Origin: an uncultured bacterium
GTDB lineage: Bacteria > Patescibacteriota > Minisyncoccia > UBA6257 > 2-01-FULL-56-20
Reading direction: 5' to 3'
Length of the DNA: 64,000 bases
Assembly: GCA_963807165.1 (NCBI GenBank)
Contig: CAWDZM010000001.1
Coordinates: 198,306 to 262,305, forward strand
A model generated the notes under the pieces. That model saw only the letters and a program-made list of their open reading frames with translations. It made no database searches and was not told the DNA's origin. The position numbers and the translations under genes are program-made. Positions 484-49,630 of the stretch are shown piece by piece. Each line of letters begins with the position of its first letter. Position 1 is the stretch's first letter.

Positions 484-556
484 TTGACCGGTCAGTATAT
501 TTATAGTACGCTAAAAACGTTTTCAATCAGCACCTTGTAGGTTCAGGGAGGGAATC

Positions 557-901
557 ATGGCAATGAGGATGAATTTTGAGTTGTTAAAAGATGACGAAAA
601 AAAGATCGTCGGAGTCGAACTTGTGGGAGATGGCAGTACGGAAGCCAAGATTTGGGCTGCGACCTTTCCTAGAGCTTTAGCTGCTGGAAGAGCAACTATT
701 GGGTTCAGTGGCAAAAAGATCTTCTTCAATCATTTAAAAGGAGAATTCCCGGCGACGTTTACATTTGAACTATCCGAGGAAGAGATCGATCCCCTGAGAA
801 CAGTTTTCCGATATGATCAACCGTTGAAATCGGAATCTTCAGAGGCGTGGTGCGGGGGATTCAAGCTTTTTCTTCCCAACGAACTGCCCGTGGCTAGCTA
901 A
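557..901 (+). CDS. Hypothetical protein
   Basis: 114-aa ORF followed by a hairpin plus T-run. Confidence 0.35.
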   Translation: MAMRMNFELLKDDEKKIVGVELVGDGSTEAKIWAATFPRALAAGRATIGFSGKKIFFNHLKGEFPATFTFELSEEEIDPLRTVFRYDQPLKSESSEAWCGGFKLFLPNELPVAS

Positions 902-2189: not shown

Positions 2190-2717
2190 CTAGAACTCCA
2201 CGGTGAACTTTGCCTTCGCGCCCGCGTTGAAAGGATGCTTGATCTCGCGCATCTCGGTCGCAAGGTCGGCGGCGTCAATCAGCTCCTGTGGCGCGCCACG
2301 CCCGCTCACAATTAATATCTTATCCTCCGGATAGTCCTTGATGGCATCAAGGACTTCCTGCACGGTGAGCAACCCGAGCGAGATCGCGACGTTCACCTCG
2401 TCGAGCGCGATCATGTGCCACTTGCCGGAATTCTTTTCCTCCACAAACATCGCAAGTGCTTTACGCGCCGCCGCTTTGTGATCCTCCAGCGGCAATTTGT
2501 CGCCAAGGATGCCGACGAAGCCAAGCCCCATTTTTCGGATCGCAAAGCGCTCGGCGGGAATATTATTTTTAGCTGCAAACTCATCTTCGCCAGAGATCCA
2601 GGGGCCTTTAATAAATTGAATCATCAGCGCCGTCTTGTCGCGCCCTAACACGCGAACCATTTGTCCAAGCGATGCAGTCGTTTTTCCTTTTCCGTTGCCA
2701 GTGAAGAGAAGAATCAT
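2190..2717 (-). CDS. cobO: Cob(I)yrinic acid a,c-diamide (corrinoid) adenosyltransferase, CobA/CobO/BtuR family
   Basis: P-loop LFTGNGKGKTTA and QFIKG motifs align along the full length to CobA. Start moved to the internal Met (MILLFTGNGKGKTT). Confidence 0.8.
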   Translation of the reverse strand: MILLFTGNGKGKTTASLGQMVRVLGRDKTALMIQFIKGPWISGEDEFAAKNNIPAERFAIRKMGLGFVGILGDKLPLEDHKAAARKALAMFVEEKNSGKWHMIALDEVNVAISLGLLTVQEVLDAIKDYPEDKILIVSGRGAPQELIDAADLATEMREIKHPFNAGAKAKFTVEF

Positions 2718-2809
2718 GGTGATTATTATACCGAAATCCATCCAACAGGCGCAACTTGATGACCGTCGGCTGTTACTATACAATATAGGCAGAAAGAGGA
2801 GGTTTTATC

Positions 2810-3499
2810 TTGAAATTGAAGTGGGCGATTTTTGCAATTGCTATTGCATTGCTTTGCCTTGCATCCCCAGCTGTGGCACGCGCTGATACCTTCACGCTAG
2901 GAACGGGGTATCAGTATGTAACCCTCAACAACCAATTTGTGGTCGGGCTCATCACCGGCAGTACGCTCAACGGCAAGGCCATCGGGCCCGTCATCTGTGA
3001 CACCTCCGATAAGGAGAGTTTCCTTGGGTCTACGTGGATGGTTAACGTGAACCCGCTGACTGGGCCATGGAGTCCTCCACCGATGTTTTCCGGCGTTGGC
3101 GCCACCGGCTATGAAGTGGCAGCAATCGCGGAATACGATATGACTCTGCCGGCCAATCAAAACCAGAACGAGCAAAATCTACTGCAAGATCTGGTGTGGG
3201 ATGAGATGATTCCGGGAAGCGGGGCGGCCATAACGGGCCTTCCTGTTGGCGCTGACAACACACTCCTTGCCCAAATAGCAACGGAGGTTGGAAACTACAA
3301 CTATTCCGGATCAATAATTCTCACCCCGGCCGGTAATGATCCAGATCAGGAATTTCTTGAAATCAATGCAGTCCCTGATCCGGTTCCCGAGCCAGCATCA
3401 CGAACCTTGACGTTAGTCGGACTCCTGTTCGGATTGTCAGCGCTGGGATACAAACAATGTTTCCGGCGCGCGCTTCAAACGCACCGACCGATAGACTAA
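2810..3499 (+). CDS. Secreted PEP-CTERM domain protein
   Basis: Signal peptide. C-terminus is VPEPAS + hydrophobic helix + RR (canonical PEP-CTERM sorting signal). TTG start preceded by AGAGGAGG. Confidence 0.7.
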   Translation: MKLKWAIFAIAIALLCLASPAVARADTFTLGTGYQYVTLNNQFVVGLITGSTLNGKAIGPVICDTSDKESFLGSTWMVNVNPLTGPWSPPPMFSGVGATGYEVAAIAEYDMTLPANQNQNEQNLLQDLVWDEMIPGSGAAITGLPVGADNTLLAQIATEVGNYNYSGSIILTPAGNDPDQEFLEINAVPDPVPEPASRTLTLVGLLFGLSALGYKQCFRRALQTHRPID

Positions 3500-4246: not shown

Positions 4247-4969
4247 TTATAGGTTGGCTGAAAGGAGCTTTCGACGTGCGAGGCCAGCGGCAAAGACAAG
4301 CCCCGTTCCGAGCAGCATCAGAGACGAAGGTTCGGGCGTCGGTGCGACGGGGGTTAGGTCGATGGTAAGGCTTGGATCGATGGCATCTCCGCTTGTGGGC
4401 AATGCCGACAATGTGATGGTATAGGTGTCGGCGGCATTGGGGTTAAAGCTGAGCGGTGTCGCTAGAAACGCGAAGCCGAGATTCTCAGCATTCTGAAATC
4501 CATCGTCGCCCGGCTGCATCGCGCAACCCGAGCAGACAATTCCAGAACCGTTGGCCTGACCGTTGTCCGGCAACAGCGTTGGATTGAAGGAGACTACCGC
4601 GTTTGTTGTGTCGTTTGCAATGATCAGGTTGTAGGTGTACGCGCCCAAAGGGTCGCTCCCGGTATTCACGGAGAATGCGAAATCCCAATTGGCGAGCGTG
4701 CCAGCGTTTGGCGAATAGTAGTAGTCGTTCGTCGTTGGCGTGATCGGCCCCACAAAGCGGGTAATCGCTTCGAGCCCGAGTTGCAGAGTGCTTCCATCCG
4801 AATTTGTCGCAGTGAGTACATCCCAGCCGGCGTTGACGTTTCCGGTTCCAAAGTAGACCCCGGGGTTAGACAGACTGGAGTTGAAGGTCTCATCCGCGTG
4901 TGCAGTTGCCAATGTGGCTCCTCCCATCGCGGCCAAGGCCAAGAACAACATAAACTTTTTACTTTTCAA
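4247..4969 (-). CDS. Secreted PEP-CTERM domain protein
   Basis: Signal peptide. C-terminus is TPEPSS + hydrophobic helix + RRK. Confidence 0.7.
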   Translation of the reverse strand: MKSKKFMLFLALAAMGGATLATAHADETFNSSLSNPGVYFGTGNVNAGWDVLTATNSDGSTLQLGLEAITRFVGPITPTTNDYYYSPNAGTLANWDFAFSVNTGSDPLGAYTYNLIIANDTTNAVVSFNPTLLPDNGQANGSGIVCSGCAMQPGDDGFQNAENLGFAFLATPLSFNPNAADTYTITLSALPTSGDAIDPSLTIDLTPVAPTPEPSSLMLLGTGLVFAAGLARRKLLSANL

Positions 4970-5049
4970 GATTACTCCTCCTGATCGATTTATCCCTATA
5001 ACATAAGGGACGAAGAATATTGTATCCTAAATATGCAAAAAATACAAAT

Positions 5050-5123: not shown

Positions 5124-5780
5124 TCAATATTCGCGAAAGGCAATGAGTTTTCTCAATTTCTCGACTTCCGCTTTTCTTCTTATCCGTATTGCATTATTAC
5201 GTACTTCGGGATGAAATTCAAGCCGCCGCAAAATGTCTTCGACGATATTCAATAATGATTGATTCTTATTTGAAAACGAGAAATTATAGGTGCAAGTTGG
5301 TAGGTGAATATTGAGGGAACCCTCTGCCTCGAATAATCCGCGAAGAAATCTTATGGAAAATGATTCGTTCTCGTTTATCCAATCCGGAAGAGTATACGGC
5401 ACATCTTTTCTATTACCGCTCGCTATCCCCAGCCGCTGGGAAATATATTTTTGGTATAAGCTGATCCGAAGCGCATTTACATCTTTTAGTTTGGTAACCG
5501 TAGGTTCGTTGCCAAATAAAATATGAGTTAATCTTGTGTACCGGCGGATAAATTCTGGGTTATTGCTATTGCCCACGATTATTAACCGCTCCGTTCGCGG
5601 GCATGCTTCAATATTTCCATCTCCAAGCACCACCCCGATATATTCAGCAAGATCACCGTTACGGGGAAGATCCGCATAGCGAACGCGGTGGTCGTCGCGC
5701 CATTTTTTAAAATTATCAATTTTTCTCGCCTTCATAGTGCGAGATATTTTTTCTGCGCGAGAAAATTTGTGATTTGGCAT
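5124..5780 (-). CDS. LAGLIDADG homing endonuclease, double-motif. Its stop codon lies 3 nt before the 5' end of tRNA-Gln.
   Basis: Motifs YIGVVLGDGNI and FLRGLFEAEGSL. Confidence 0.8.
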   Translation of the reverse strand: MPNHKFSRAEKISRTMKARKIDNFKKWRDDHRVRYADLPRNGDLAEYIGVVLGDGNIEACPRTERLIIVGNSNNPEFIRRYTRLTHILFGNEPTVTKLKDVNALRISLYQKYISQRLGIASGNRKDVPYTLPDWINENESFSIRFLRGLFEAEGSLNIHLPTCTYNFSFSNKNQSLLNIVEDILRRLEFHPEVRNNAIRIRRKAEVEKLRKLIAFREY

Positions 5781-5874
5781 ATAATCTTGTTCGGATTATA
5801 TACCTCCCGCATTAAATTTTTATTAAATCTCTATCTCTATTATTAAACTAGCACAGCCAAGCGAGCGCCTGCGT

Positions 5875-6978
5875 TTACATTAGCTGCTCCACTAGCGCCA
5901 CTTCGAGTGGGACGATGGCGAACGGGGAGTAGCGCATCTCCGCGTACGCGCGGATGAGCGCTTTAATGAACTTAACGAGCGTGGCAGTGTCTGCGGCCGT
6001 GCCGAGCGCTATTGCGCCCGCGACCTCGTCACGCGTGAGGTCGCGCTCCATCACCGACTTGAGCGACGGATTGACCTTAAGCGACAGCACTTTACGCAAG
6101 TAATGGATAAGGTCTTTAGTGAACTGAACAAGATTGTGGCCGTCCTCGTTCAGCTCATTCAGGTTGGCGAGCGCCGCTTTGACATCTTTTTTAACAATGA
6201 GTTCCGCAAGCTCGTGCACTTTCTTCAGCCCGGTGCGGCCGGTCACACGCTCCGCATCGGCAAGTGTGATATTTTTTTCGAGCGATGATATCTGGTCAAG
6301 CAACGATTCCGCGTCGCGGAAGCTGCCTTCCGCGGCGGCCGCGATGAGCTCGATCGCCGGCGCATCTATTGTTATCTTTTCCTTTGCCGCGATCGACGTC
6401 AGCTTTTCAATGATCGTCGCCTTGGTTAATTTTTTAAAAACGAACCGCTGTGCGCGAGAGGTAATTGTCGGCGGAAGTTTTTCAAACTCCGTCGTCGCCA
6501 AAATGATCACCGCATGCTTGGGAGGTTCCTCCAATGTTTTGAGCAGGGCATTGAACGCCGCGCCGGTGAGCATGTGCGCTTCGTCTATAATATAAACCTT
6601 GTGCTCGGCGCTCGCGGGCGCGGTGCGGATGTTTTCCTTGAGGTTGCGAATCTCGTCGATGCCGCGATTAGAGGCTGCGTCGATTTCTACGACATCGAAC
6701 GAATTCTGCGCATCGATCGCCAAGCACTCACGGCACCCGTTGCACGGCTCGCCGAGCGCGGCGAACTTTGGATCCGTGCGGCGCTTTTCGCAATTGAGCA
6801 GCTTTGCGATCAACCGCGCCGTCGTCGTCTTGCCAGTTCCCCGCGCGCCATAAAAAATGTAAGCCTGCCCGAGCCGGTTTGATTTTGCCGCATTCTTAAG
6901 AATCTCAACGTTCGTTTCTTGGCCGAGGACGTCGTCGAGTTTCTGTGGGCGATATTTGCGATAGAGGGCTTGTGCCAT
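5875..6978 (-). CDS. dnaX: DNA polymerase III subunit gamma/tau (short form)
   Basis: Walker A GARGTGKTT and clamp-loader motifs. TATAAT sits 8 nt upstream of the ATG on the minus strand. Confidence 0.85.
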   Translation of the reverse strand: MAQALYRKYRPQKLDDVLGQETNVEILKNAAKSNRLGQAYIFYGARGTGKTTTARLIAKLLNCEKRRTDPKFAALGEPCNGCRECLAIDAQNSFDVVEIDAASNRGIDEIRNLKENIRTAPASAEHKVYIIDEAHMLTGAAFNALLKTLEEPPKHAVIILATTEFEKLPPTITSRAQRFVFKKLTKATIIEKLTSIAAKEKITIDAPAIELIAAAAEGSFRDAESLLDQISSLEKNITLADAERVTGRTGLKKVHELAELIVKKDVKAALANLNELNEDGHNLVQFTKDLIHYLRKVLSLKVNPSLKSVMERDLTRDEVAGAIALGTAADTATLVKFIKALIRAYAEMRYSPFAIVPLEVALVEQLM

Positions 6979-7050
6979 GTGAGATTATTATAGCCGCAGT
7001 TGCATAATTATCAAATAAATGTCATAATCGTTATAGGAGGAAAGTTGCGG

Positions 7051-9677: not shown

Positions 9678-10740
9678 ATGGTACTTATGCATTCCCTATT
9701 GCTCAGCGAAGCGGTGCGCGTCACTATTTTGACGACGATATCATTCGTGGTCGCGCTCCTCGTTACACCGCTGTGGTATAAGTTCATCATCAAATATAAA
9801 TTCGGGAAGCAGTTGCGTAATGGCGCGGAAACGCCGGTATTTGCGGAGCTCCATAAGAATAAAGCCGGCACGCCGACGAGCGGCGGCATTATCATCTGGA
9901 CAACCGTGATCGGTATGGCGATCATCTTCGATGTCATGCGTCACATTTTTGGCGGCGGATGGAATTATTTTAACTTCGTTGATCGCGCGGAAACCTATCT
10001 GCCGATCGCGGCATTCCTTATCGCTGCATTGCTTGGACTGCTCGACGACTGGCTTAATGTACTTAAAATTGGCGGCGCGCCAGGCGGGGGATTAAAAATT
10101 CGCCAGAAGGCGATTGGTACGTCTAATCATCGCGCTCATCGGCGCATGGTGGTTCTACTTCCGCCTTGGATGGAACGTACTCACCATCCCGTTCGTTGGT
10201 AATATTACGATCGGCTGGTGGTATATCCCTATATTTATTTTTATCATTTTTGCCGCAGCATTTTCTGCAAACGAAACCGATGGCTTGGACGGTCTCCTTG
10301 GTGGTGTATCGCTCTTTGCGTTCGTGTCGCTCGCCACGGTCGCATTTGTTCTGCACGACTATAACCTTGCCGCATTTTGCGGAGCCGTCATCGGAGCACT
10401 TCTCGCATTCCTGTGGTTTAACATCTATCCGGCAAAATTTTTTATGGGAGACACCGGCTCGATGTCGCTCGGCATTACGATCGGCGTCATCGCAATGCTC
10501 ACCAATACCACGCTCATCCTTCCATTCTTTACCATCATTCTCGTCGTCGAATCACTTTCCGTCATCATCCAGGTAATCTCCAAAAAATTGCGGCGAGGAA
10601 AGAAAGTATTCCGCTCCGCGCCGATCCATCACCACTTTGAAGCACTCGGCTGGCCCGAGTCGCAAGTTACCATGCGTTTTTGGATCGTCTCCGCGGTATT
10701 CTGCGCACTCGGACTCGTTATATTCTTCCTTTCTCACTAA
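9678..10740 (+). pseudogene. mraY: Phospho-N-acetylmuramoyl-pentapeptide transferase MraY, with a +1 frame break near 10120. Probably a 1-nt insertion artefact.
   Basis: Two ORFs (9678..10202 and 10114..10740) together cover MraY. Removing one nucleotide restores the frame. Confidence 0.8.
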
Positions 10741-10820: not shown

Positions 10821-11417
10821 CTACAGGTTGTGTTGTATGAGGCGCGGTTGGATGCTGAAGCGCCGAAGGCCGAAGGCGAAAGCCAGCAGGCCGGAACCGA
10901 GTAAAAGTAATGATGATGGTTCCGGAACTGGCGGCGTTGCTATTTCTGTCAGTGTAAATGTCCCAGGCGTCTGGACGAAGGTGCTCTCGAGAATGGTATC
11001 GCCAGCAAAGATGTTTATCTGAACGCCGTCGGTGGCGAGAAAGAGAACTCCAGCCGAATCGAGTTCTTCTCCCCCAGATCCAGGAAAAGAGAACTTGTTA
11101 TCAAAGAAACAATTTCCTCCGGCTGGGCACAATACTGCCCCGGGGAAATATCCATCTGCCGGGCCCGCGTTGTTGCTGGTCGGATTGAGCGAACCGGTTG
11201 TCCCCGTCGTTAGAAAAAGTGGATCGCCATCAACTACAAGCACCGTGCCGTCGGTGGCCTGATATTGGCCATCGCCAAGAGGTACAGCGGTAAGAGTGCC
11301 TGTCAGAATGGGCGTTTCGTCTGGTGCCGTAAAGGTGAATGTGAAGCTGTCAGCGACAGCCGCACGAGATGCGATCCCGAGAACTGCGATCGCGAGAAGT
11401 GCAGGAATTTTTTTCAT
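10821..11417 (-). CDS. Secreted PEP-CTERM domain protein
   Basis: Signal peptide. C-terminus is VPEPSS + hydrophobic helix + RR. Confidence 0.7.
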   Translation of the reverse strand: MKKIPALLAIAVLGIASRAAVADSFTFTFTAPDETPILTGTLTAVPLGDGQYQATDGTVLVVDGDPLFLTTGTTGSLNPTSNNAGPADGYFPGAVLCPAGGNCFFDNKFSFPGSGGEELDSAGVLFLATDGVQINIFAGDTILESTFVQTPGTFTLTEIATPPVPEPSSLLLLGSGLLAFAFGLRRFSIQPRLIQHNL

Positions 11418-11500
11418 CTAAAACAATCCCCCTCATCAGAGTTGACAAAAGTTCTGTCTGGTGTCGAGTATATATTAAAATTCCATAAAGTCAATCTTAT

Positions 11501-11529
11501 TTGACTATCCCTAACCATTTGTTATACTT
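11501..11529 (+). promoter_or_regulatory. Sigma-70-type promoter of rpsB: TTGACT, 17-nt spacer, TATACT. The ATG is 6 nt downstream, so the mRNA is leaderless.
   Basis: Hexamers read directly from the sequence. No SD upstream of the ATG at 11536. Confidence 0.45.
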
Positions 11530-11535
11530 TCTCGT

Positions 11536-12339
11536 ATGCCAGAAGACACAATAGTATCTATGCAAAACAACCAGACGTCCGGATATCCGGCGGAAGGATC
11601 CCGCGAAATGATGGATGCGGGAGTTTTTTATGGCCGCAAAAAAAGCAAGACGAATCCCAAAATGCGTCCGTTCGTGCTCGCTAATCGTGGCGGAATCGAG
11701 ATCATCAACCTCCAGAAGACGGAGGAGTTGATGGATACCGCAGCAGCGTTCATCAAAGAGAAGTCCCGGAATAACGGTTTGGTATTGCTCGTCGGCACAG
11801 AGCCGGCGGCGGAAATGAGCGTCACGGCACTCGCAAAGAAGCTCGGCATTCCGTACGTCACAACCCGCTGGGTCGGTGGTGCTATTACGAACTTCAAGAT
11901 CATCAATAAGCGCATCGAGCATCTTAAAACACTTCGCACCGATCTCGCGTCCGGCGCGCTCGTCAGCAAGTATACCAAGAAGGAGCGTCTTGATATGGAA
12001 AAAGAAATGAAGCGTTTGGAAGTACTCATGGGCGGTCTTGAAAATATGACAAAGGAGCCAGATGTCGTCGTTATCATCGATCCGATTTTGCATCACACCG
12101 CGCTCAGCGAAGCGAATACAAAAAAGATCCCCGTGGTCGCGCTGGCAAACGTGGACGCAGATCCGGACAAGATCGCATATCTCGTTCCAGGCAACGATAA
12201 GGCGAAGAAGAGCATTGAGTGGTTCATTGAGCGCGTGGGTAAAGCCTATGAAGAGGGGGTAAAGTTGCGTGCAGTGGCGCCGACACCTTCCACGCCGATG
12301 GCGGCAGTGGTTGCCTCAGCACCGGTAGAGGAAAAGTAG
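11536..12339 (+). CDS. rpsB: 30S ribosomal protein S2
   Basis: Full-length S2 homology. Classic rpsB-tsf pair. Confidence 0.9.
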   Translation: MPEDTIVSMQNNQTSGYPAEGSREMMDAGVFYGRKKSKTNPKMRPFVLANRGGIEIINLQKTEELMDTAAAFIKEKSRNNGLVLLVGTEPAAEMSVTALAKKLGIPYVTTRWVGGAITNFKIINKRIEHLKTLRTDLASGALVSKYTKKERLDMEKEMKRLEVLMGGLENMTKEPDVVVIIDPILHHTALSEANTKKIPVVALANVDADPDKIAYLVPGNDKAKKSIEWFIERVGKAYEEGVKLRAVAPTPSTPMAAVVASAPVEEK

Positions 12340-12378
12340 TGGTGCGCTTGGAAAAGTAATGTAGTATAATTTGAAACT

Positions 12379-12840
12379 ATGGAAATCAAAACAACGGTGA
12401 CGGCAGAGATGGTTCAAAAATTGCGCGATGTGACGAGCGCGGGAGTGATGGATTGCCGCAAGGCGCTCATCGAAGCAAACGGCGACGTTGATGCTGCGGT
12501 CAAGATCATTCACGAGAAGGGATTGGCAAAGGTAGAGAAGCGCGCGGATCGCGAGACTGGCGCGGGACTTGTGCAGTCGTATGTTCACAACGAGCGCATC
12601 GGCGTGTTGCTGCGTTTGAGCGCAGAGACCGACTTTGTTGTTCGCTCGGAACCTTTCAAGGCGCTGGCCCACGATCTCGCGATGCATATCGCGGCGGCGG
12701 CACCAAAAAATGTTGAGGAATTGCTTGCACAGCCGTATGTAAAGGATGAATCTCGCACGGTAAAGGATGTGGTAGGCGAGGTCATTGCAAAGGTGGGGGA
12801 GAACGTCGCCGTCGGCGAGTTCTATCGCGTCGAAGCATAA
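12379..12840 (+). CDS. tsf: Elongation factor Ts (short form)
   Basis: EF-Ts UBA-like N-terminus (VTAEMVQKLRDVTSAGVMDCRKAL). TATAAT sits 8 nt upstream of the ATG. Confidence 0.85.
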   Translation: MEIKTTVTAEMVQKLRDVTSAGVMDCRKALIEANGDVDAAVKIIHEKGLAKVEKRADRETGAGLVQSYVHNERIGVLLRLSAETDFVVRSEPFKALAHDLAMHIAAAAPKNVEELLAQPYVKDESRTVKDVVGEVIAKVGENVAVGEFYRVEA

Positions 12841-14116: not shown

Positions 14117-14135
14117 CACATAGAAAAGAAAAAAC

Positions 14136-14185
14136 GCCTTGTGGATTTCGTTAAAACGAATATCCAAAAGGCGTTTGAGACTCGC
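14136..14185 (-). terminator. Terminator hairpin aaacgcctt/aaggcgttt with a T-run on the minus strand, downstream of 14219..14464.
   Basis: 9-bp stem seen in the sequence. Confidence 0.35.
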
Positions 14186-14218
14186 TCTCAATAATGAGAG
14201 CCGATCAATCTTGAAGTG

Positions 14219-14464
14219 CTAATGGCCGGGATCGCTTTGGCCCATTTCGGCGATAACCTGATCCTCTCCGGATTCCCGGAAGTAGTAGCTTGCGCAGATA
14301 TAGAGCCCAAGAAATGCAGTCACCGAGATAGAGCCGGTCACCACCCCAATGTGATGATGCTTTGTGACTAATGCGCCCACGGAAGCCACGGCACTCAAGC
14401 AAAACAGAAGATGAAACATGAAGCAGGCCCTATTCCAACGACCCACTACAACGGATTGATCCAT
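14219..14464 (-). CDS. Hypothetical small membrane protein
   Basis: 81 aa, two hydrophobic helices. Confidence 0.3.
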   Translation of the reverse strand: MDQSVVVGRWNRACFMFHLLFCLSAVASVGALVTKHHHIGVVTGSISVTAFLGLYICASYYFRESGEDQVIAEMGQSDPGH

Positions 14465-14570
14465 ATACTCCTCCTCAAAGATCGATTTCTACTGGCACAA
14501 ATCTATTATAACACTGTAGTTTATATATTGTCAATTTTCTTTTTCTGTAAGCAAGCGCCATAATAGAGCC

Positions 14571-15107
14571 ATGCAAGAATACGTAACCGACGCGGTGGTA
14601 CTCCGAAAAGATTCACAAGGCGATATCGACGGGCGCTATACGCTTTTTACGAAGCGATTTGGAAAAATCCGCGCGAAGGCAAAGAGTTCACGTAAGATCA
14701 CTTCAAAACTTGCGCCGCATCTTGAGCCCGGCATCGTGGCAAAAATACGCTTTATTGATACGAAGGGGACACAGCTGATCGATGCGCTCAAATCCGCACG
14801 GCTCGCCCTCCCGCTTGCGGACCTGCACTTTTTGAGCCAGCTTTTGCCGGATGCGGAACCGGAACCAGCACTGTGGGAATTATTAATAAACGGCACGGAC
14901 GATGCCACGACTGGCGATAAAAGTACCAGCTGGTCATGGGCAAAGGCGCTCGCGGTGCTTGGCTGGGATCCGGGAGAAGCGGAGTGCGTGGACTGCGGCG
15001 CAAAGCGACCATCATACTTTTATATCACGCGTCAAGAATTTTATTGCCGCACGCATGCTTCAAAAGCGCGCAAAGATGCGGTAATATTCATAGATGCCCG
15101 AGTATAA
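14571..15107 (+). CDS. recO: DNA repair protein RecO-like (short)
   Basis: N-terminal OB-fold pattern (DAVVLR...LFTKRFGKIRAKAK) and a C-terminal C-x2-C...C zinc finger. Confidence 0.55.
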   Translation: MQEYVTDAVVLRKDSQGDIDGRYTLFTKRFGKIRAKAKSSRKITSKLAPHLEPGIVAKIRFIDTKGTQLIDALKSARLALPLADLHFLSQLLPDAEPEPALWELLINGTDDATTGDKSTSWSWAKALAVLGWDPGEAECVDCGAKRPSYFYITRQEFYCRTHASKARKDAVIFIDARV

Positions 15108-19749: not shown

Positions 19750-19878
19750 ACAGTTTTGCAATCATTAAAAAATCATTAAATTAGTTTTGACAATTTTGCG
19801 TAGAGATTTATTATTGGAATATGCCTGTGAGGATCTAGAGTTCTCAATCGGCGAAAAGTGCTGATGACAGGCGGGCAG

Positions 19879-19905
19879 GGTCCACGCTTATGGCGTGGAT
19901 TTTTG
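19879..19905 (+). terminator. Rho-independent terminator: hairpin gtccacgc/gcgtggat, then ttttt.
   Basis: Seen ~130 nt after the murA stop. Confidence 0.45.
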
Positions 19906-20280
19906 CTTCTTGCCGTACACGGTCAAAAAATGTTTTTTACCATTCGGCGTCTGTTTAATAAGGATTGTTATAGGTATATCGTTGATCGTCGCAGTGAAAA
20001 TCCAATAACGTATATAAATATCATTGATAATTTTGAGTTCGTAAGAATAATGCGCATTTGGGTTCTGCAATACAGCCGGAACGTGATGAAGTAAAAGAAA
20101 TCGCCGTCTTTGTTCGCTCCGTGGACGGATTATATCTTTCTTTCCGATAAGATGATCAAGACCGCCCCTCGTAAAAGCAACATAATCATTCAGCACCGGG
20201 CACCAGATTTGCCCAATAACCCGATAAAACTCCTTTATTGATCGCTTGGCATCAGCATAACTCTCGCGGGAAATTTCCAT
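19888..20280 (-). CDS. Hypothetical protein. Weak resemblance to small RelE-fold toxin families (ends ...HFLTVYGKKQK).
   Basis: 130-aa ORF inside an otherwise non-coding, AT-rich ~800-bp gap. Confidence 0.3.
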   Translation of the reverse strand: MEISRESYADAKRSIKEFYRVIGQIWCPVLNDYVAFTRGGLDHLIGKKDIIRPRSEQRRRFLLLHHVPAVLQNPNAHYSYELKIINDIYIRYWIFTATINDIPITILIKQTPNGKKHFLTVYGKKQKSTP

Positions 20281-20563
20281 CCCGCCATTCTACGAAAGAG
20301 ACGATTAAAATTATTTAAAAGCTTTACGAGTATATAGTCATAAAGCTTAAGTTCTACCGAAATTTGGCATCTCTTAGATAGCAATTAGAATTATGATTGC
20401 GGTGGATTGATTTCATCGTGACCTAAATGCCTGAATAAGGCGGGAGGGGTAATTCTGAAAAGACAAGGTTAGCCCCTTCTGGAGCGGGTAGAGCAAAGAA
20501 TTCACAGCCAACTGTGAGCGATAATGCTTGTGCGAGGAGCCTTTTTCGCCTATAATAGCAAGC

Positions 20564-21571
20564 ATGTTCGGCAAGAAAATCGGCATCGATTTGGGCACGG
20601 CTAACACCGTTGTTTTTGTGCCGGGAAAGGGATTTATCATCAACGAGCCCACGATCGTGGCACTTACGCAGCCCGATAATACCGTGCTTGCGGTGGGCGC
20701 GGAGGCGAAGGAAATGATCGGCCGCACCCCGGACGAGATCGTGGCATACCGCCCGCTCAAAGACGGCGTGATCGCGGATTACTATATTACGAAAGCGATG
20801 CTTACGTACTTTATCTCGAAGGCGTCGGGCTGGTTCAACATCCTTAAGCCGGATGTCGTCATTTCCGTTCCAGCGGGCATCACGCAGACCGAACGCCGCG
20901 CCGTCATGAACGCCGCGCGCGAAGCGGGTGCGGGCAACGCGTTCATCGTACGCGAGCCGATCCTCGCCGCGCTTGGCGCCGGCATCCCGATCAACGCGCG
21001 TAGCGGAAATATGATCATCAACATCGGTGGCGGCACGAGCGAGCAGGCGGTGATCGCGCTTGGCAACATCGTCTCGTGGAACTCGCTCCGCATCGCCGGC
21101 AATAAGTTCGACCAAGCGATCATGGACTACATTAAAAAGAAGTATGCACTCGCGATCGGCGAACAGACGGCAGAGCAGGTCAAGATCGAGATCGGTTCGG
21201 CGATGCCGACGAAGGAAAAAATGGAATATCAGGTGCGCGGGCGCGATCTTGTAACCGGCTTGCCGAAGGACGTCGTCATCAACTCGAATGAGATCGCGGA
21301 GGCGTTGAATCCGTTGCTCATTGAGATCGCGAGTAGTGTGCAAAACGTCTTCAACGTAACCCCGCCGGAGCTCGTCGCTGATATTATGGAAAAGGGGATC
21401 ATCCTGAGCGGCGGCTCGGTGCAACTTCATCACCTTCCGGAGTTCTTTGAACGCTTCCTCGGCGTTCAAGCATACGTCGCTGAAGACCCGTTGTTCTGCG
21501 TGGCAAAAGGCACCGGCCTTATTTTGAATCATCTGGACACGTACAAGAGGACATTGCTCAACAAGCGATAA
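20564..21571 (+). CDS. mreB: Rod shape-determining protein MreB
   Basis: Actin-fold motifs (IGIDLGTANT). TATAAT sits 7 nt upstream of the ATG. Confidence 0.9.
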   Translation: MFGKKIGIDLGTANTVVFVPGKGFIINEPTIVALTQPDNTVLAVGAEAKEMIGRTPDEIVAYRPLKDGVIADYYITKAMLTYFISKASGWFNILKPDVVISVPAGITQTERRAVMNAAREAGAGNAFIVREPILAALGAGIPINARSGNMIINIGGGTSEQAVIALGNIVSWNSLRIAGNKFDQAIMDYIKKKYALAIGEQTAEQVKIEIGSAMPTKEKMEYQVRGRDLVTGLPKDVVINSNEIAEALNPLLIEIASSVQNVFNVTPPELVADIMEKGIILSGGSVQLHHLPEFFERFLGVQAYVAEDPLFCVAKGTGLILNHLDTYKRTLLNKR

Positions 21572-24110: not shown

Positions 24111-24147
24111 CCCGAATAGTCTTTTTGAAGGCGCTATACTATAAGCT

Positions 24148-25353
24148 ATGATCCAACGTGGTATAGCTTCTTTCGGACTCGACTACGGCAAGTGTCCGCC
24201 GTGGCTTTTTGAGCGCATGGTAAAGCTCGGACGCGAAATGATGTATGTATTGATAGCCGAATACGGCCCGGACGAGTTTATCAAACGCATCGCCGACCCG
24301 GCGTGGTTTCAATCGCTCGGCACAGTGCTCGCGTTCGATTGGAACGCGAGTGGACTCACGACTATTTTAACCGCGGCACTCAAGGAAGCAATCCGTGGGC
24401 ACGAGGCAGATTTCGGCATCGTGATCGCTGGGGGAAAAGGAAAGACGTCCCTAAAGACGCCGGATGAGATCCAGGCATGGGGCGATCGCCTGGCGATGCC
24501 CGTTGCCCAGACAAAAAAGCTGGTCTATAACTCCAAGATGAGCGCCAAGGTGGATTCCGCACTCGTGCAGGACGGCTTCCAGCTCTATCATCACGCGTTC
24601 TTCTTCTCACGCGGCGGTGCGTGGGCAGTCGTCCAACAGGGAATGAATGCGGAGAAACAATCAGCGCGACGCTACCATTGGTATTCGGAGGACGTGAACG
24701 ATCTGGTATCCGATCCGCACTCCGGCATCTCATCGCCAGTGACACTCAAGACCGTGCTCGATCTAAGCGCGGCAAAAAGCGATAAGACCCGCGAGATCTC
24801 GACCGAGCTCACGCAGGCCGGTTACGCGACGCTTATGAAGGACATCACGCTCTTGCGAAAATATTCATCACATCTTTCGCAAATGGCAAAGATTCAAATC
24901 GACGGTGATGGCCGACAGAGCCAGCAGCTCAGCCTGCTCAATTTAGAATCTGTTGAGTTCACCACCCATCCTGTCATATTTGAGGATTTTTCCAAGAGTA
25001 AATATTTAGAAAAAATATTGGCAAAGGTGACTGACGAAAAACCGCAAAGCTATGAAAAACTTCTCGCCACAGAAGGCGTCGGCGCAAAGACCGTCCGCGC
25101 GCTTGCGCTCGTCGGCGAGATCATCTATGGCGCATCGCCATCATACGAAGATCCTGCGCGTTATAGCTTTGCCCACGGCGGAAAAGATGCCACGCCCTAT
25201 CCAGTGGATCGCAAAACATACGACGAGACCATCATAATGCTCGGCCGCGCCGTGCGGAAGACACGCCTCCCGCTCGCCGACAAGCAGAAGGCACTCAACC
25301 GACTCAACGGAACCAGCAACAACATCGACACGCCACCGACCCAAATACTATAA
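24148..25353 (+). CDS. Conserved hypothetical protein (possibly DUF763-like)
   Basis: 401 aa, soluble. Family assignment from memory only. Confidence 0.35.
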   Translation: MIQRGIASFGLDYGKCPPWLFERMVKLGREMMYVLIAEYGPDEFIKRIADPAWFQSLGTVLAFDWNASGLTTILTAALKEAIRGHEADFGIVIAGGKGKTSLKTPDEIQAWGDRLAMPVAQTKKLVYNSKMSAKVDSALVQDGFQLYHHAFFFSRGGAWAVVQQGMNAEKQSARRYHWYSEDVNDLVSDPHSGISSPVTLKTVLDLSAAKSDKTREISTELTQAGYATLMKDITLLRKYSSHLSQMAKIQIDGDGRQSQQLSLLNLESVEFTTHPVIFEDFSKSKYLEKILAKVTDEKPQSYEKLLATEGVGAKTVRALALVGEIIYGASPSYEDPARYSFAHGGKDATPYPVDRKTYDETIIMLGRAVRKTRLPLADKQKALNRLNGTSNNIDTPPTQIL

Positions 25354-25373
25354 CGTATGGTATAATTTTATAC

Positions 25374-25658
25374 ATGAACACATTGATTCATGCAGATATT
25401 TTCTTTTTTGTGACAACAATTGCAGTTATCATTGTTGGGATCGCACTCACCATAGCACTCATCTATCTCTCAAAGGTATTGAGTGATATTAAAGAAATAA
25501 CGAAGCAGGTAAAAGAAGAAACAATGTTATTCCGAGAAGATATCAAAGGGTTGCGGAGCGATGTTAAACGAGAAGGGTTCCGTATTGAACGCTTTTTGAT
25601 GTTCATTAAGAACTTGTTCAAAAAGACAACGGCAAGGTCGAAAAAGGAAATGAAATAA
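25374..25658 (+). CDS. Hypothetical small membrane protein
   Basis: N-terminal TM helix, charged tail. Confidence 0.3.
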   Translation: MNTLIHADIFFFVTTIAVIIVGIALTIALIYLSKVLSDIKEITKQVKEETMLFREDIKGLRSDVKREGFRIERFLMFIKNLFKKTTARSKKEMK

Positions 25659-28730: not shown

Positions 28731-30308
28731 TTATTGTGTTTTTAATCCGATGTTAATGACTTTTTCTCCATTCGTAACGCCCGACATGATCTCTACGTTG
28801 CCGCTTTGATCAACAATGCCAAGCTTCACCGGCACCTGTGTCTCTGCACCATTTTGCAGAATATCCACAAACGTGCCGCTCGCATTTTGTATCACCGCAT
28901 ATTGTGGAAGGATGAGTGCGTTCTGATCGGTCTGCGTATTGATATCAAGATTGGCGGTCAAGCCACTCTTGATACGCGGATCAGGTGTGGTGAATGAGGT
29001 CTTCACAAGATAATCAACAACACCGCTTTGAATCGTCTGGGCTGGATCGATATAGAATATCTTTCCGGCAAAGGTCTCGCCAGGAAATGCATCAAAGGTC
29101 ATATTCACCGTATTGCCCACCGCCACCTTTCCAATGTCTGTCTCTGGAACATAGGCATCCACCTCAAAATTATTTGCTGAAATAATAGAAGTGATAATTT
29201 GACCCGGAGTCGCAACCTGACCTACCTTTGCATTCTGTACGGTAACAACACCGTTGATAGGGGAGACGAGCGATGCGTTATTGATGTTAACCTGGATGCT
29301 TTGCGCGTTTGCCTGCGCCTGTGCCACGGCAGCCTGCTGTGCCGCGATCGCCTGTGGTGTCGAACCGGCCTGCGTCTCGGAAAGCTGTGCCTGTGCCTGC
29401 ACCACAGCCGCCTGCTCAGACGCGACGCTTTGCTGAATACCATTGATCGCGGTGGCGGCAGTGCTCACCTCCGTGATCGCGCTCGCCACGTCATTTTTAT
29501 ACGTTGCCGCAACGCTCGGCGTAAGGCCGCTTTCATCCACCACCGCATTCGCATCAGTGTTTAACATTGCAGTCACCACAGAAAGATGATTGGCCGCATT
29601 CTGTAACGCTTGAGAGAGTGTGGAAGTGGATGCGGAAGGCGAGAGCGCACCGATTTCCATCTGCCATGTATTCAATTCATTACCAACCTGAACCCGCTCG
29701 GCATCCGCATTGTTCACCACCGCTGAATTCTGATCGTTGGTTGAAAACGAAAGCTGGGGATTGCTTGAATCCGCATTATTATAGAACGTCGCAATTTGAT
29801 TCTGCACCGCATCATTCGCTTTTGCATACGCACTGGTAACCGCGTTCCCGACGCTGGTATAGGTGTTCGCCAAGGTCTGATTGGCGGTCGCGAGCGCAGC
29901 CTGCGAGACCGCAATCGCTTGCGGCGTAGCTCCCGCCTGAAGGTTCGCAAGCGTTGCCTGTGCCGCCGCGACGCCCGCCTGCGCCTGCGCGAGTTGTGCC
30001 TGCAAGCTACCGGTATCAAGGCGCACGAGCGTATCACCGGCGTTCACGGTATCACCCGCATTCTTATAAACCGCGGCCACAGTACCACCATTTTCAAAAG
30101 AAAGATCTAAGCTTTGGATAGGAGTAGTGTTGCCCGTCACACTCACCACCTCCGTGATCGTACCCTGAGTGACGGTTACAAACTGATATTTACCACCACT
30201 ATTTGCGGCAACAAAAAAATAAATGATGATTCCCACAACCACCACCGCAAGAACGGCGATGATCACCTTTTTCTTTCCAAATCCAAACCGTGTTAATAAT
30301 GTCTTCAT
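28731..30308 (-). CDS. Periplasmic adaptor (HlyD/MacA family, membrane fusion protein) with a very long Ala/Gln-rich coiled coil
   Basis: N-terminal TM, long alpha-hairpin repeats, C-terminal beta-barrel/MP domain. Confidence 0.75.
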   Translation of the reverse strand: MKTLLTRFGFGKKKVIIAVLAVVVVGIIIYFFVAANSGGKYQFVTVTQGTITEVVSVTGNTTPIQSLDLSFENGGTVAAVYKNAGDTVNAGDTLVRLDTGSLQAQLAQAQAGVAAAQATLANLQAGATPQAIAVSQAALATANQTLANTYTSVGNAVTSAYAKANDAVQNQIATFYNNADSSNPQLSFSTNDQNSAVVNNADAERVQVGNELNTWQMEIGALSPSASTSTLSQALQNAANHLSVVTAMLNTDANAVVDESGLTPSVAATYKNDVASAITEVSTAATAINGIQQSVASEQAAVVQAQAQLSETQAGSTPQAIAAQQAAVAQAQANAQSIQVNINNASLVSPINGVVTVQNAKVGQVATPGQIITSIISANNFEVDAYVPETDIGKVAVGNTVNMTFDAFPGETFAGKIFYIDPAQTIQSGVVDYLVKTSFTTPDPRIKSGLTANLDINTQTDQNALILPQYAVIQNASGTFVDILQNGAETQVPVKLGIVDQSGNVEIMSGVTNGEKVINIGLKTQ

Positions 30309-30416
30309 ATAAGTGTATTATATCATAATACTGCTCATTACGCAGAAGTTATCCACAGGGTAGTTAAGCAACTGAACAATTATGGTTTATAATTAATAAT
30401 ATATTAATCATTATCT

Positions 30417-32052: not shown

Positions 32053-32484
32053 TTACAACCAGAGAAGAAGATAAACAAGCATATCTCCCGTGGTGATGGT
32101 GGAAATACCAAGGAGTAGCGCGGGAATTGCAAAATATTTATGCGCTCGCGGATACTCGTCTCCGTTAAACCAAAGCGTCAGGAAAAAAAATGGTAGAAAC
32201 AGCAAGAGCAGGGGAAGGTGAACCCAAAAGAACGGAATGTGTGGAAGCCCAAGCGCCACACGAGCACCCTCGATGGCCAAAACCGCCGCCGCCATGGTCC
32301 ACGTTGATAATTTGGCCGCTCTCTTATGGCGGGAAAATGCGATCAACTCAAGAGGGTCACCATTCATGTGCCCCCATCGATAATACCCAACCCACGCACC
32401 ATACCAACCCGTTTGGAGAAATCGGTAAGCAAAGAGGGTTGATAACCCCCAAAGAAGCAGTGCGGTACAGTGAAAAAGAGTCAA
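32053..32484 (-). CDS. Hypothetical polytopic membrane protein
   Basis: Four hydrophobic helices. Confidence 0.35.
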   Translation of the reverse strand: MTLFHCTALLLWGLSTLFAYRFLQTGWYGAWVGYYRWGHMNGDPLELIAFSRHKRAAKLSTWTMAAAVLAIEGARVALGLPHIPFFWVHLPLLLLFLPFFFLTLWFNGDEYPRAHKYFAIPALLLGISTITTGDMLVYLLLWL

Positions 32485-32556
32485 AGCCAGTACCTCCTGG
32501 CCACAGCATAGCTTATGTTCTACATTATTTCAAATTAAAGAGGTATACTATACAAC

Positions 32557-33276
32557 ATGAAGATCCAATGGAATAAAGTGACGTGGTATTCAAAGTTCCT
32601 GGCGCTGGCGCTCTTTGTGGCCCTGCCGTTCATTGGGTTTTATTACGGGATGCAATATGGCAGGATGACGGCGATACTTGGCGAGATATCAACCATCAAT
32701 TTAAAAAGCAGCGGTACCGCCGATAACAGCGCGGCGTACTATAATGATCCCGCCGAGTGGCAGATAGATGCGAACAATATCGCAGGTGGATTCAACATCG
32801 CATATCCACTGGATTTTGATACGCAAGATAATTATTCTGCAACGCCATCCACCGACTGGCGTTTGAATGCAAACGCGCCGGGAGTAAAATATTTCACCCT
32901 GACCGTGCCGCGCGCGTTCGAACCGCAGACAAACTTTGTGGATGCCACGCTCACCGTCGGTGCAAGCCAGGACAGCGCCGCGATCGCCTCATGCCTCACG
33001 CCTGATCAACTCGGAGAACCGACAACCGCCGCTTTGAGTGCAACGATCAACGGCATCGCGTTCACTATTTTCAAGTTCAATGGCGCCGGCGCCGGAAATT
33101 ATTATGAGACTACAAGCTACCGCACGCTCCACGCAGGCGCATGCTACGCGGTTGAATATACGGTTCACTCCGGTCAGATTGCAAATTATCCTTCATCGTA
33201 TAATCTTCAACCATTCGATGGGTCAAAAATAGACTCCTTAATGCAAAACATCGTTGGCACGTTTAGATTTCAATAA
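32557..33276 (+). CDS. Hypothetical secreted protein
   Basis: Signal/TM anchor. Confidence 0.4.
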   Translation: MKIQWNKVTWYSKFLALALFVALPFIGFYYGMQYGRMTAILGEISTINLKSSGTADNSAAYYNDPAEWQIDANNIAGGFNIAYPLDFDTQDNYSATPSTDWRLNANAPGVKYFTLTVPRAFEPQTNFVDATLTVGASQDSAAIASCLTPDQLGEPTTAALSATINGIAFTIFKFNGAGAGNYYETTSYRTLHAGACYAVEYTVHSGQIANYPSSYNLQPFDGSKIDSLMQNIVGTFRFQ

Positions 33277-37588: not shown

Positions 37589-37634
37589 GGGATTATTATA
37601 ACGCCGCGATGCCAGAAAAACCATTAAAAAATGA

Positions 37635-38075
37635 TTATAAAAACTTTTCTATCACCAATTGTTTTATTTCTTCCGGCTTGAGATCAATATCTTTTAATCT
37701 TGAAAGGGGAATCTTTACCGGGTCGTGCGTACCGTCAACCGCGTACGGAGTGTTTGGCTGATATTCCGGACCATCACCGGCGCCAAACGTACCACCGACC
37801 TCCTTGCACAGATAAAAATCATGCACCACTTCTTCTTTGCTATCATGGCCTTCGTGATGATATTCCGCGAAGCGCTCTCCGACGCTGACTTCCACTCCCA
37901 ACTCTTCTTTCATTTCGCGATGCAATGCCTGCAAAATTGTTTCTCCTTTTTCCACACCACCGCCGGGGAAAATATAATATGTCCGATCTCCTTTGACCCG
38001 TTCGATGAGCGCAATCTTACCATCTTCAATAATAATTCCTCGAACACGTTTATTCATAGCGCTCAAAGTATACAC
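37635..38075 (-). CDS. NUDIX hydrolase
   Basis: Nudix box GGGVEKGETILQALHREMKEELG. Confidence 0.8.
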   Translation of the reverse strand: MYTLSAMNKRVRGIIIEDGKIALIERVKGDRTYYIFPGGGVEKGETILQALHREMKEELGVEVSVGERFAEYHHEGHDSKEEVVHDFYLCKEVGGTFGAGDGPEYQPNTPYAVDGTHDPVKIPLSRLKDIDLKPEEIKQLVIEKFL

Positions 38076-38895: not shown

Positions 38896-39393
38896 TTAAT
38901 GAAACAATCCCAGCAACCAGTTCACCGCCTGCTGTGCCAGTCCAAGTGCCCATGAAAATAAATTTAATAGCGCAACAAGAATTCCATTGAGTTGAATGCC
39001 GGTCACGCTATAGAACCAATTATCGAACTGACCGATCCACTGGCTCAAAATATTTTGCACGCTGGTCTCGAGCACCGGCGTCATGTTGACGGTCGGCCAT
39101 GTGGCACCCGGCATGCCATTCGTGTTAACCGTTGTATTATTGTTCAGCTTAAGGCTGTTAATGAACCCGGTGAAGGGCGAAATAAGATTCTGGAACGAGT
39201 TACCGATATTATAATTGCCGCCACTAAGATCCGTAGAGCCGGCCGTGATGCCGCCGCCCGAGCCAGTCGATCCGACAGCATACGCGCGCGCCTGCGGTGC
39301 GGCAAAGATGCCGCCGAACGCACCCAAGAAAAGAAAAACAGCAATCAGACCAACGATCGCTGTCTCAAAGAACATCACGCGGTTCTTTTGCAT
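38896..39393 (-). CDS. Hypothetical membrane protein with hydrophobic segments at both the N- and C-terminus
   Basis: 165 aa. Topology only. Confidence 0.35.
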   Translation of the reverse strand: MQKNRVMFFETAIVGLIAVFLFLGAFGGIFAAPQARAYAVGSTGSGGGITAGSTDLSGGNYNIGNSFQNLISPFTGFINSLKLNNNTTVNTNGMPGATWPTVNMTPVLETSVQNILSQWIGQFDNWFYSVTGIQLNGILVALLNLFSWALGLAQQAVNWLLGLFH

Positions 39394-39416
39394 AACTTTA
39401 TTATAGCACTTTCGAT

Positions 39417-40930
<1,514 letters not shown>

Positions 40931-41004
40931 TTAGCACGAAAACGGGGGCGAGGCTAGGGGGGCAACAATTAGTGTTTCAAAATAGCCGCCTGTATAATGT
41001 AGCT

Positions 41005-44463: not shown

Positions 44464-44467
44464 TTTT

Positions 44468-49588: not shown

Positions 49589-49630
49589 ACCTAACCTCCT
49601 CGATTTTCAAGCTTCCGCAGATATTGTATC

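Follow-up and report, generated by a model that had tools for sequence, protein, structure and literature searches.

Bacterial genes with a promoter element set almost on the start codon are known from GeneMarkS-2 group C, to which Actinobacteria (for instance M. tuberculosis) and Deinococcus-Thermus (for instance D. deserti) belong; in that group a Pribnow box lies 6-8 nucleotides (nt) from gene starts, messenger RNAs begin with the start codon and initiate independently of a Shine-Dalgarno sequence, leaderless transcripts have been confirmed by differential RNA sequencing, and a TANNNT box accompanies 25-50% of transcription units (PMC6028130). Loss of the anti-Shine-Dalgarno sequence (anti-SD) has been reported in a subgroup of Parcubacteria, CCUCCU being detected in only 48% of 16S ribosomal RNA (rRNA) genes (Tsurumaki et al. 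2022, RNA 28:1041, PMC9297842), and in tiny genomes (Nikolaeva et al. 2021, PMC7782861). These two papers report the loss, do not state the mode of translation start and make no mention of leaderless messenger RNAs (mRNAs), and we found no paper in the literature that links the candidate phyla radiation (CPR), Patescibacteria or Parcubacteria to leaderless expression. We analysed a 64,000-nt stretch of contig CAWDZM010000001.1 from an uncultured bacterium (hereafter the window), in which rpsB and many other genes have a hexamer like the bacterial -10 promoter element a few nucleotides before the ATG. As in group C, TANNNT is localised before the start of a large fraction of genes and is a promoter-type motif with -35 and TGn partners, the position of transcription start being read here from sequence; as in the Parcubacteria of Tsurumaki et al., the 16S rRNA gene lacks CCUCCU and belongs to a CPR genome. 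Our reading is that the hexamers are very probably sigma-70 -10 elements that would give leaderless or near-leaderless mRNAs, the transcription start and the mode of initiation being deduced from promoter geometry.

Hexamers before start codons

The original prediction cited seven genes (rpsB, tsf, mreB, dnaX, murC, rpmE and a periplasmic adaptor gene) as having a consensus -10 hexamer just upstream of the start codon, and all seven hexamers exist in the window. The distances from hexamer to ATG that it gave for tsf, mreB, dnaX and rpmE (8, 7, 8 and 10 nt) are correct, whereas four others were off by 1-2 nt: for rpsB the gap between -35 and -10 is 16 nt rather than 17 and that from -10 to ATG is 7 nt rather than 6, the hexamer of murC lies 6 nt from its ATG rather than 5, and that of the adaptor gene 8 nt rather than 10. 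These sites and the further boxes beside starts are as follows, with gaps given between successive elements.

11501-11538, plus strand: rpsB (Pfam Ribosomal_S2); -35 TTGACT 11501-11506, 16 nt, TGt and -10 TATACT 11523-11528, 7 nt, ATG 11536
12365-12381, plus strand: tsf (Pfam EF_TS), operon-internal, 39 nt past rpsB; TATAAT 12365-12370, 8 nt, ATG 12379
20528-20566, plus strand: mreB (Pfam MreB from residue 4); TTGTGC 20528-20533, 17 nt, TATAAT 20551-20556, 7 nt, ATG 20564
6976-7014, minus strand: dnaX; TTGATA 7014-7009, 16 nt, TATAAT 6992-6987, 8 nt, ATG 6978
37586-37639, minus strand: murC; TATAAT 37600-37595, 6 nt, ATG 37588, the Mur_ligase profile aligning from residue 8 with that start
37639-37634, minus strand: second murC box; TATAAT, 9 nt, in-frame ATG 37624
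61195-61236, plus strand: rpmE (L31; Pfam L31 over residues 1-63); TTGACT 61195-61200, 17 nt, TATAAT 61218-61223, 10 nt, ATG 61234; predicted leader of about 3 nt
30306-30322, minus strand: HlyD-family adaptor gene; TGa and TATAAT 30322-30317, 8 nt, ATG 30308
47099-47115, minus strand: amidohydrolase gene; TATAAT 47115-47110, within the 3' end of the upstream open reading frame (ORF; 47101-47670), 8 nt, ATG 47101
44461-44476, minus strand: murG; TATAAT 44476-44471, 7 nt, ATG 44463, 4 nt past the ftsW stop
56856-56872, minus strand: secD; TGt and TATAAT 56872-56867, 8 nt, ATG 56858
39391-39405, minus strand: hypothetical gene of 165 amino acids (aa); TGc and TATAAT 39405-39400, 6 nt, ATG 39393
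25361-25376, plus strand: 94-aa gene, operon-internal, gap 20 nt; TGg and TATAAT 25361-25366, 7 nt, ATG 25374
2715-2730, minus strand: ORF 2190-2783; TATAAT 2730-2725, 7 nt, ATG 2717, which is likely the true start of this ORF
40993-41007, plus strand: ORF ending at 41610; TATAAT 40993-40998, 6 nt, ATG 41005
24135-24150, plus strand: DUF763 gene; TATACT 24135-24140, 7 nt, ATG 24148
32544-32559, plus strand: 239-aa gene; TATACT 32544-32549, 7 nt, ATG 32557
38055-38072, minus strand: gene at ATG 38057; TATACT 38072-38067, 9 nt, ATG 38057
58938-58952, minus strand: response-regulator gene (Pfam) downstream of the 16S rRNA gene; TGa and TAGAAT 58952-58947, 6 nt, ATG 58940
62327-62341, minus strand: response-regulator gene (Pfam); TGg and TATCAT 62341-62336, 6 nt, ATG 62329
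14559-14573, plus strand: recO; CATAAT 14559-14564, 6 nt, ATG 14571
49085-49099, minus strand: comEC; TATGAT 49099-49094, 6 nt, ATG 49087

Pfam upheld the gene names that came with the prediction, namely S2 (rpsB), a short EF-Ts (tsf), MreB, DnaX, a Mur ligase, L31 and a HlyD-type adaptor. Profile alignments begin at residues 1-8 in MreB, L31, RecO and MurC, and this agreement at the N-terminus supports the box-adjacent ATGs as the true starts.

For the count of -10-like hexamers before starts that the prediction had proposed, ORFs were called by codon usage and the first ATG of each ORF was taken as its start with the upstream sequence ignored, a motif-blind rule that avoids circularity and gave 65 window genes; the calls are approximate and the rule favours ATG. 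TATAAT stands at a spacer of 6-9 nt before 10 of these 65 starts against 4 of 2,114 other ATGs (0.19%; Fisher p = 2.5e-13), TANNNT before 25/65 against 4.3% of other ATGs (p = 1.2e-16), and a hexamer with at least 5/6 matches before 19 of the 65. When the 40-nt upstream regions were shuffled, TANNNT matched 8.3 +/- 2.6 times with a maximum of 19 in 2,000 shuffles, compared with the 25 observed, and 20 nt further upstream of the same genes (spacer 26-29) there are 2 TATAAT compared with 10 at spacer 6-9. The peak covers spacers 6, 7, 8 and 9. There are 59 TATAAT hexamers in the window, 14 of which sit 6-10 nt before an ATG that begins an ORF of 80 aa or longer. If only scores beyond the 98th percentile of background are counted, 12/33 operon-first and 8/32 internal genes have a box. 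The positional pattern is real, and roughly one gene in three has it; the peak lies above random expectation both in the window and in its relatives, and the claim that many genes have the box stands in so far as the count is far above chance and must be narrowed to about 30-40% of genes, not most.

ATG opens 26/27 boxed genes in the window, where the start rule favours it, and 22/23 in public gene calls. Starts are almost exclusively ATG among the public calls of the relatives in any case (49/50), and a pyrimidine occupies position -1 in about 65-72% of genes with or without a box, against 35% of other ATGs (window and loci L001-L020).

An expectation-maximisation (EM) motif search over the 30 nt before motif-blind starts, run separately on the window and on its relatives with no pattern imposed, returned t-G-n-T-A-t-a-a-T from each, with A2 and T6 as the most informative positions and the end of the hexamer 6-9 nt before the start. 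This profile is supported as that of a sigma-70 extended -10 element, not of a ribosome-binding site (RBS). With window and relatives pooled, the TGn extension is found at 46% of operon-first and 27% of operon-internal boxes against 6.9% of all comparable hexamers, and 33% of operon-first boxes have a -35 TTG at 16-18 nt, the background being 6.1%; box frequency is 35% among operon-first and 31% among internal genes (44/144 internal, with a background of roughly 3-4%). The 16S rRNA promoter provides a reference independent of any start codon:

60803-60830, minus strand: 16S rRNA promoter; TTGACA 60830-60825, 16 nt, TGc and TACAAT 60808-60803

Since a gene without a start codon has a like element, the same consensus is that of the organism's promoters. 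A generic promoter scan found 37 sites in 20 kilobases against 22 +/- 4.4 in shuffles, rpsB and dnaX being among the best. Short public contigs were also considered as possible transcripts; two Logan contigs begin 22 nt (rpsB) and 16 nt (amidohydrolase gene) before the starts, yet they include the -10 box and are not transcript ends.

The arrangement recurs among relatives. Around rpsB in 20 related Paceibacterota loci, TATAAT stands at spacer 6-9 before 31/269 genes against 0.24% of other ATGs (p = 7e-35), and in the public-pipeline gene calls of three further relatives (66-80% protein identity) TANNNT stands at spacer 5-10 before 23/50 genes. The rpsB orthologues (about 17 loci, down to 62% protein identity) share TTGAC[TC], 16-17 variable bases ending in TTGn, TATACT or TATAAT, 7-9 pyrimidine-rich bases and the ATG, while in 16 dnaX orthologues only TATAAT or TATACT 7-8 nt before the ATG is conserved and all flanking bases diverge; gltX likewise keeps box and distance while its flanks diverge. 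Similar conservation is seen in tsf (TATAAT or TAAAAT kept at 8 nt), mreB (TATAAT, TAAAAT or TACAAT at 7-8 nt in L005, L012 and L017), murC (TATAAT-6-ATG in L151), murG (TATAAT in L149, TATTAT in L151), secD (TGtTATAAT in L149, TGtTAGAAT at 8 nt in L122) and the 165-aa hypothetical gene (TGcTATAAT in L146 and L149), and recO, whose window copy reads CATAAT, has TATAAT, TATACT or TACAAT at 6-8 nt in its orthologues. The amidohydrolase box, (TGn)TATAAT at 8-9 nt in the public gene calls of L146, L149 and L151, persists though the upstream gene differs; for the gene at 15094, whose box is embedded in the upstream ORF, TGCGGTAATAT is kept in relatives with only about 30% protein identity. Beside the 16S rRNA gene, the response regulator has (TGn)TAnnnT 6-9 nt before the ATG in 7/7 orthologues that adjoin anti-SD-less 16S genes on independent contigs. 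The claim that the hexamers are -10 elements is thus upheld by the EM motif, the enrichment of TGn and -35, the likeness to the 16S promoter and the conservation at rpsB.

Public start calls for rpsB orthologues (P0002, P0005, P0006, P0018, P0027) fall at three places, reading MPEDT (box-adjacent), MQNNQ (8 aa short) or beginning upstream, and the upstream calls translate the promoter as '...LFDYPQPFAILSR'. Start sites in these metagenome-assembled genomes (MAGs) are systematically unreliable. An exact-protein look-up had other window proteins on record and not the products of rpsB and dnaX, so their public start calls may differ from the box-adjacent ATG.

The 16S tail and genes without a box

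The prediction held that start-adjacent boxes fit a 16S rRNA without anti-SD, and this tail is indeed present:

59074-60631, minus strand: 16S rRNA gene, one full-length copy; GGATCA runs directly into the 3' tail ATTAAACT (59081-59074), which lacks CCTCC

The full-length gene ends ...GGATCAATTAAACT, with ATTAAACT in place of CCTCCTTA; as RNA, the context of the 3' tail is AUUAAACU, without anti-SD, and no hidden anti-SD was found in the 150 nt past the 3' end. The 23S gene does not adjoin the 16S gene. Scanning metagenomes with a helix-45 pattern gave 117 usable tails, 94 of which are CCTCCTTT. ATTAAACT together with the helix 45 of the window occurs in seven independent contigs (L058, L109, L122, L123, L125, L131, L132), eight with the window, and the eight diverge directly after it (after ACT); an identical tail with divergence right behind it means that ATTAAACT is real, and its end probably marks the mature 3' end of the 16S rRNA. 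Further non-SD tails in other contigs and lineages are ATTAATTT, CTACATTT and TTTTTTTA. One contig, L111, has the same helix 45 as the window with the normal CCTCCTTT tail.

Contigs with ATTAAACT show 10 matches to the -10 element where 0.4 are expected in 50 genes, and no Shine-Dalgarno (SD) peak. Other anti-SD-less contigs behave similarly with respect to the -10 element, and on CCTCC contigs an SD peak is present and the -10 element has no sharp peak, both from small samples. The proposed fit between the boxes and the anti-SD-less 16S is therefore borne out on anti-SD-less contigs and reversed on anti-SD contigs, as far as these small samples go.

Unboxed internal genes begin -29 to +32 nt relative to the stop codon of the preceding same-strand gene, with four ATGA overlaps, and most unboxed genes are probably translated by termination-reinitiation. 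Native genes have no general SD peak, and the weak overall SD signal comes, in the window, from about 8 accessory genes. Some operon-first genes have conserved promoters set further back from the start, among them:

54532-54584, minus strand: gene with sigma region 4 and HARE-HTH, a counter-example; TTGACA 54584-54579, 17 nt, TACAAT 54561-54556, 21-nt A-rich leader region, ATG 54534

Its product (gene 53503-54534, minus strand) is a 343-aa protein with sigma-70 region 4 only, at the N-terminus, and an RNA polymerase delta-like HARE-HTH domain, kept in relatives with its own leadered promoter; it could be relevant to -35 recognition in a genome rich in promoters that lack a -35. In the LAGLIDADG-domain gene at 5124-5800 (minus strand), which ends 3 nt before a glutamine transfer RNA (tRNA) gene, the ATG is preceded at 14 nt by a conserved TATAAT, for a predicted leader of about 7 nt.

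The SD-led accessory ORFs begin at the following positions, each given with the stretch that holds its SD and start.

2796-2812, plus strand: SD region, start TTG 2810
547-559, plus strand: SD region, start ATG 557
4969-4988, minus strand: SD region, start TTG 4969
14464-14534, minus strand: SD region, start ATG 14464
49588-49607, minus strand: SD region, start ATG 49588
58143-58160, minus strand: SD region, start ATG 58143
32484-32498, minus strand: SD region, start TTG 32484
11417-11494, minus strand: SD region, start ATG 11417

Most of these ORFs have a low native codon-usage score; they encode hypothetical or PEP-CTERM proteins, and for none is there a homologue in any of about 150 related loci. 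Three of the islets in which they lie adjoin a tRNA gene (Gln 5050, Tyr 14033, Leu 56909). Homologues of the PEP-CTERM protein at 4969 lie on diderm-type contigs of 57-63% guanine plus cytosine (GC) content with TonB-dependent receptors and Wzy, one annotated Bryobacteraceae, and they too have AGGAG and begin with TTG or GTG. The simplest reading of the 4969 gene would be that it was acquired horizontally and that its SD is vestigial, and we limit the claim to this gene. The 453-nt gap at 14118-14570 matched no RNA family in an Rfam scan and holds an SD-led 81-aa ORF instead. At 11467-11528 two divergent promoters stand back to back as mirror images, TTGACT-16-TATACT on the minus strand (11494-11467), towards the PEP-CTERM gene led by an SD-like sequence at 11417, and TTGACT-16-TATACT on the plus strand (11501-11528), towards rpsB.

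A probable promoter on the start codon and its alternatives

We envisage that a sigma-70-type -10 element, often extended as TGnTAnnnT and sometimes with a TTGAC -35, would direct RNA polymerase to begin either on the A of the ATG or 1-4 nt upstream of it, such that roughly 30-40% of genes would yield leaderless or near-leaderless mRNAs. Ribosomes would initiate at the 5'-terminal AUG without SD pairing, as would fit the 16S tail AUUAAACU. Boxes would serve operon-first genes and about a quarter to a third of internal genes, there from inside the 3' end of the upstream ORF, while unboxed genes would mostly depend on termination-reinitiation close to the upstream stop, and a few on conserved short A-rich leaders.

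A number of observations weigh against this reading. Only about a third of genes have a box, and the other 45 TATAAT hexamers of the window are not beside starts, so that the hexamer alone is either insufficient or gives pervasive transcription. Where the spacer is 8-10 nt, as in tsf, dnaX, rpmE and others, the mRNAs would have leaders of 1-4 nt and would not be strictly leaderless. Internal boxes show no -35 enrichment (9% against a background of 6%), their conservation could partly reflect coding constraint, and orthologous loci are non-independent samples. The pyrimidine at -1, considered as a sign of transcription starting at the A, does not discriminate, since it precedes 72% of boxed and 69% of unboxed genes. 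The leadered promoter of gene 54534 is conserved (TTGACA-17-TACAAT, then 17-21 A-rich bases, in three genomes), and a canonical SD (GAGGAGG, AGGAGG or AAGGAG) stands 5-8 nt ahead of the start of about eight accessory ORFs, of which three begin with TTG; the genome is not purely leaderless.

The motif might instead work at the level of the RNA: as UAUAAU, an AU-rich sequence that S1 may bind, it would mark a ribosome-binding or standby site other than an SD on mRNAs that are leadered or polycistronic, much like the A-rich motif of Bacteroidota. Its spacer range of 6-9 nt is the same as that of SD sites, and a box frequency so similar in operon-first (35%) and internal (31%) genes is what GeneMarkS-2 takes to indicate an RBS over a promoter; the lack of a -35 at internal boxes points the same way. 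Against this, A2/T6 with TGn is the signature of sigma-70 contacts and not of an AU-rich single-stranded site, TGn is enriched at internal boxes too (27% against 6.9%), rpsB and rpmE have properly spaced -35 elements (conserved at rpsB), the rRNA promoter carries the same element, and at the full promoters of operon-first genes the hexamer cannot be in the transcript. We regard action on the RNA as unlikely, though harder to exclude for internal genes. It is with these genes that a further possibility is concerned, to which we would give a small but appreciable chance: only the operon-first boxes would be leaderless promoters, those of internal genes being unused and the genes themselves read by re-initiation on polycistronic mRNAs. 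Short gaps and ATGA overlaps, which are apt for coupling, are common, the internal boxes have no -35 enrichment, and they sit in coding sequence that is itself a constraint. However, internal boxes hold the 6-9 nt register and the TGn enrichment, their number (44/144) is far above the background of roughly 3-4%, and they are kept where the surrounding protein is poorly conserved, as with TGCGGTAATAT before gene 15094 and with the amidohydrolase box, which persists despite a new upstream gene.

We also considered and rejected a new SD/anti-SD pair, in which the motif would pair with the altered 16S tail AUUAAACU. The tail is conserved in 8 contigs where the downstream sequence is not, and its AUUA can pair with UAAU of the motif; yet the best duplex of motif and tail reaches -1.1 kcal/mol against -17.3 for the canonical SD and anti-SD, A2, the most conserved motif position, is mismatched, and hexamers complementary to the tail are not enriched (TTTAAT 2.0x and GTTTAA 1.5x, against 24-37x for TATAAT and TATACT). 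A -10 peak of this kind is also seen in other anti-SD-less lineages, whose tails (UUUUUUUA, CUACAUUU and others) are unrelated, and such pairing is highly improbable. Least credible, to the point that we give it hardly any weight, is an artefact of chance or composition produced by AT-rich intergenic DNA, in-frame stops or the choice of starts. TANNNT is somewhat raised throughout upstream regions and the TAA within TATAAT, in frame at spacer 8, can delimit an ORF, but the shuffles (8.3 +/- 2.6 against 25), the shifted spacer (2 TATAAT at 26-29 against 10), the spread of the peak over spacers 6-9, its appearance with public gene calls and the conservation of boxes in orthologues led us to reject this explanation.

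A bolder extension of the leaderless reading is that the SD mechanism has been wholly abandoned in the anti-SD-less Parcubacteria clade, where the start signal would be either a promoter (often an extended -10 without -35, and also intragenic) or reinitiation 0-30 nt past a stop, a rule that would shape the order of genes, their overlaps and the 3' ends of coding sequences, and where acquired SD-led genes would be poorly or never translated. We offer it tentatively, as a real possibility that we are more inclined to doubt than to accept.

The host and comparison with known systems

Among species-representative genomes, every relative retrieved by rpsB is a MAG from soil or peat that bears the name Paceibacterota, Parcubacteria or Minisyncoccia (CPR/Patescibacteria); their chromosomes measure 0.83-0.91 megabases (Mb), and the GC content of the window is about 50%; the host genome is below 1 Mb and belongs to Paceibacterota (Parcubacteria, CPR). 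Some other features of the window deserve mention. The stretch 39400-41700 has a lower GC content (0.45) and ORFs that overlap on both strands with poor scores. The MraY-like (Glycos_transf_4) gene at 9678-10740 (plus strand) is divided near a GGGGG run into ORFs 9678-10202 and 10114-10740, which overlap and are read in different frames; conservation among relatives extends across this junction, and a frameshift from assembly error, or a pseudogene, is likely. The RF1 homologue at 62376-63113 (plus strand) has only 245 aa, with PKT and GGQ motifs and without N-terminal domain 1, its prfA profile alignment beginning only at position 104-112, and has no -10 box 5-10 nt before its ATG. At 19787-19912 (plus strand), TTGACA-16-TATTAT is followed by a stable fold of about 90 nt (-39.8 kcal/mol, z = -4.1), and the stretch ends in a terminator-like hairpin and T-run; it is a candidate small RNA, or a 5-codon ORF beginning at the predicted transcription start, and its fold had no Rfam match and nothing similar among the related loci.

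Placing the promoter on the start, together with re-initiation, is a candidate and testable answer to how start codons are found in anti-SD-less Parcubacteria. It affects gene-start annotation in CPR MAGs, some rpsB calls reading through the promoter, and, if the SD mechanism is truly gone, the lineage shows how a bacterial genome reorganises upon its loss.

Several described systems share part of this arrangement. In Bacteroidota (GeneMarkS-2 group B) most genes likewise lack an SD and a non-SD motif stands shortly before first and internal genes, although the anti-SD is kept there and the motif is diffuse, A-rich and on leadered mRNAs, whereas no anti-SD is present here and the sharply defined TGnTAtaaT has -35 partners and is therefore a promoter, unlike the group B motif. 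Archaea of group D (Haloferax, Sulfolobus) also place a promoter element at a fixed distance from the start, with leaderless first genes; theirs is the TATA box with its B recognition element (TATA/BRE) at about -26, read by the archaeal polymerase, and internal genes have an SD. Extended -10 promoters that work without a -35 have the same TGn one base upstream of the hexamer, as do 27-46% of the boxes here, many of which lack a recognisable -35; they are a general promoter class, which says nothing on place relative to the start codon. Group C differs in that its 16S rRNA keeps the anti-SD and its internal and leadered genes use the SD, while here the anti-SD is absent, native genes lack an SD peak and boxes also precede about 30% of operon-internal genes from within the upstream ORFs; the present genome, moreover, has about 50% GC and less than 1 Mb, and CPR is not among the lineages reported for that group. 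What we describe is a known bacterial leaderless architecture in a lineage not so described, set apart by the lack of an SD back-up and by its many intragenic boxes.

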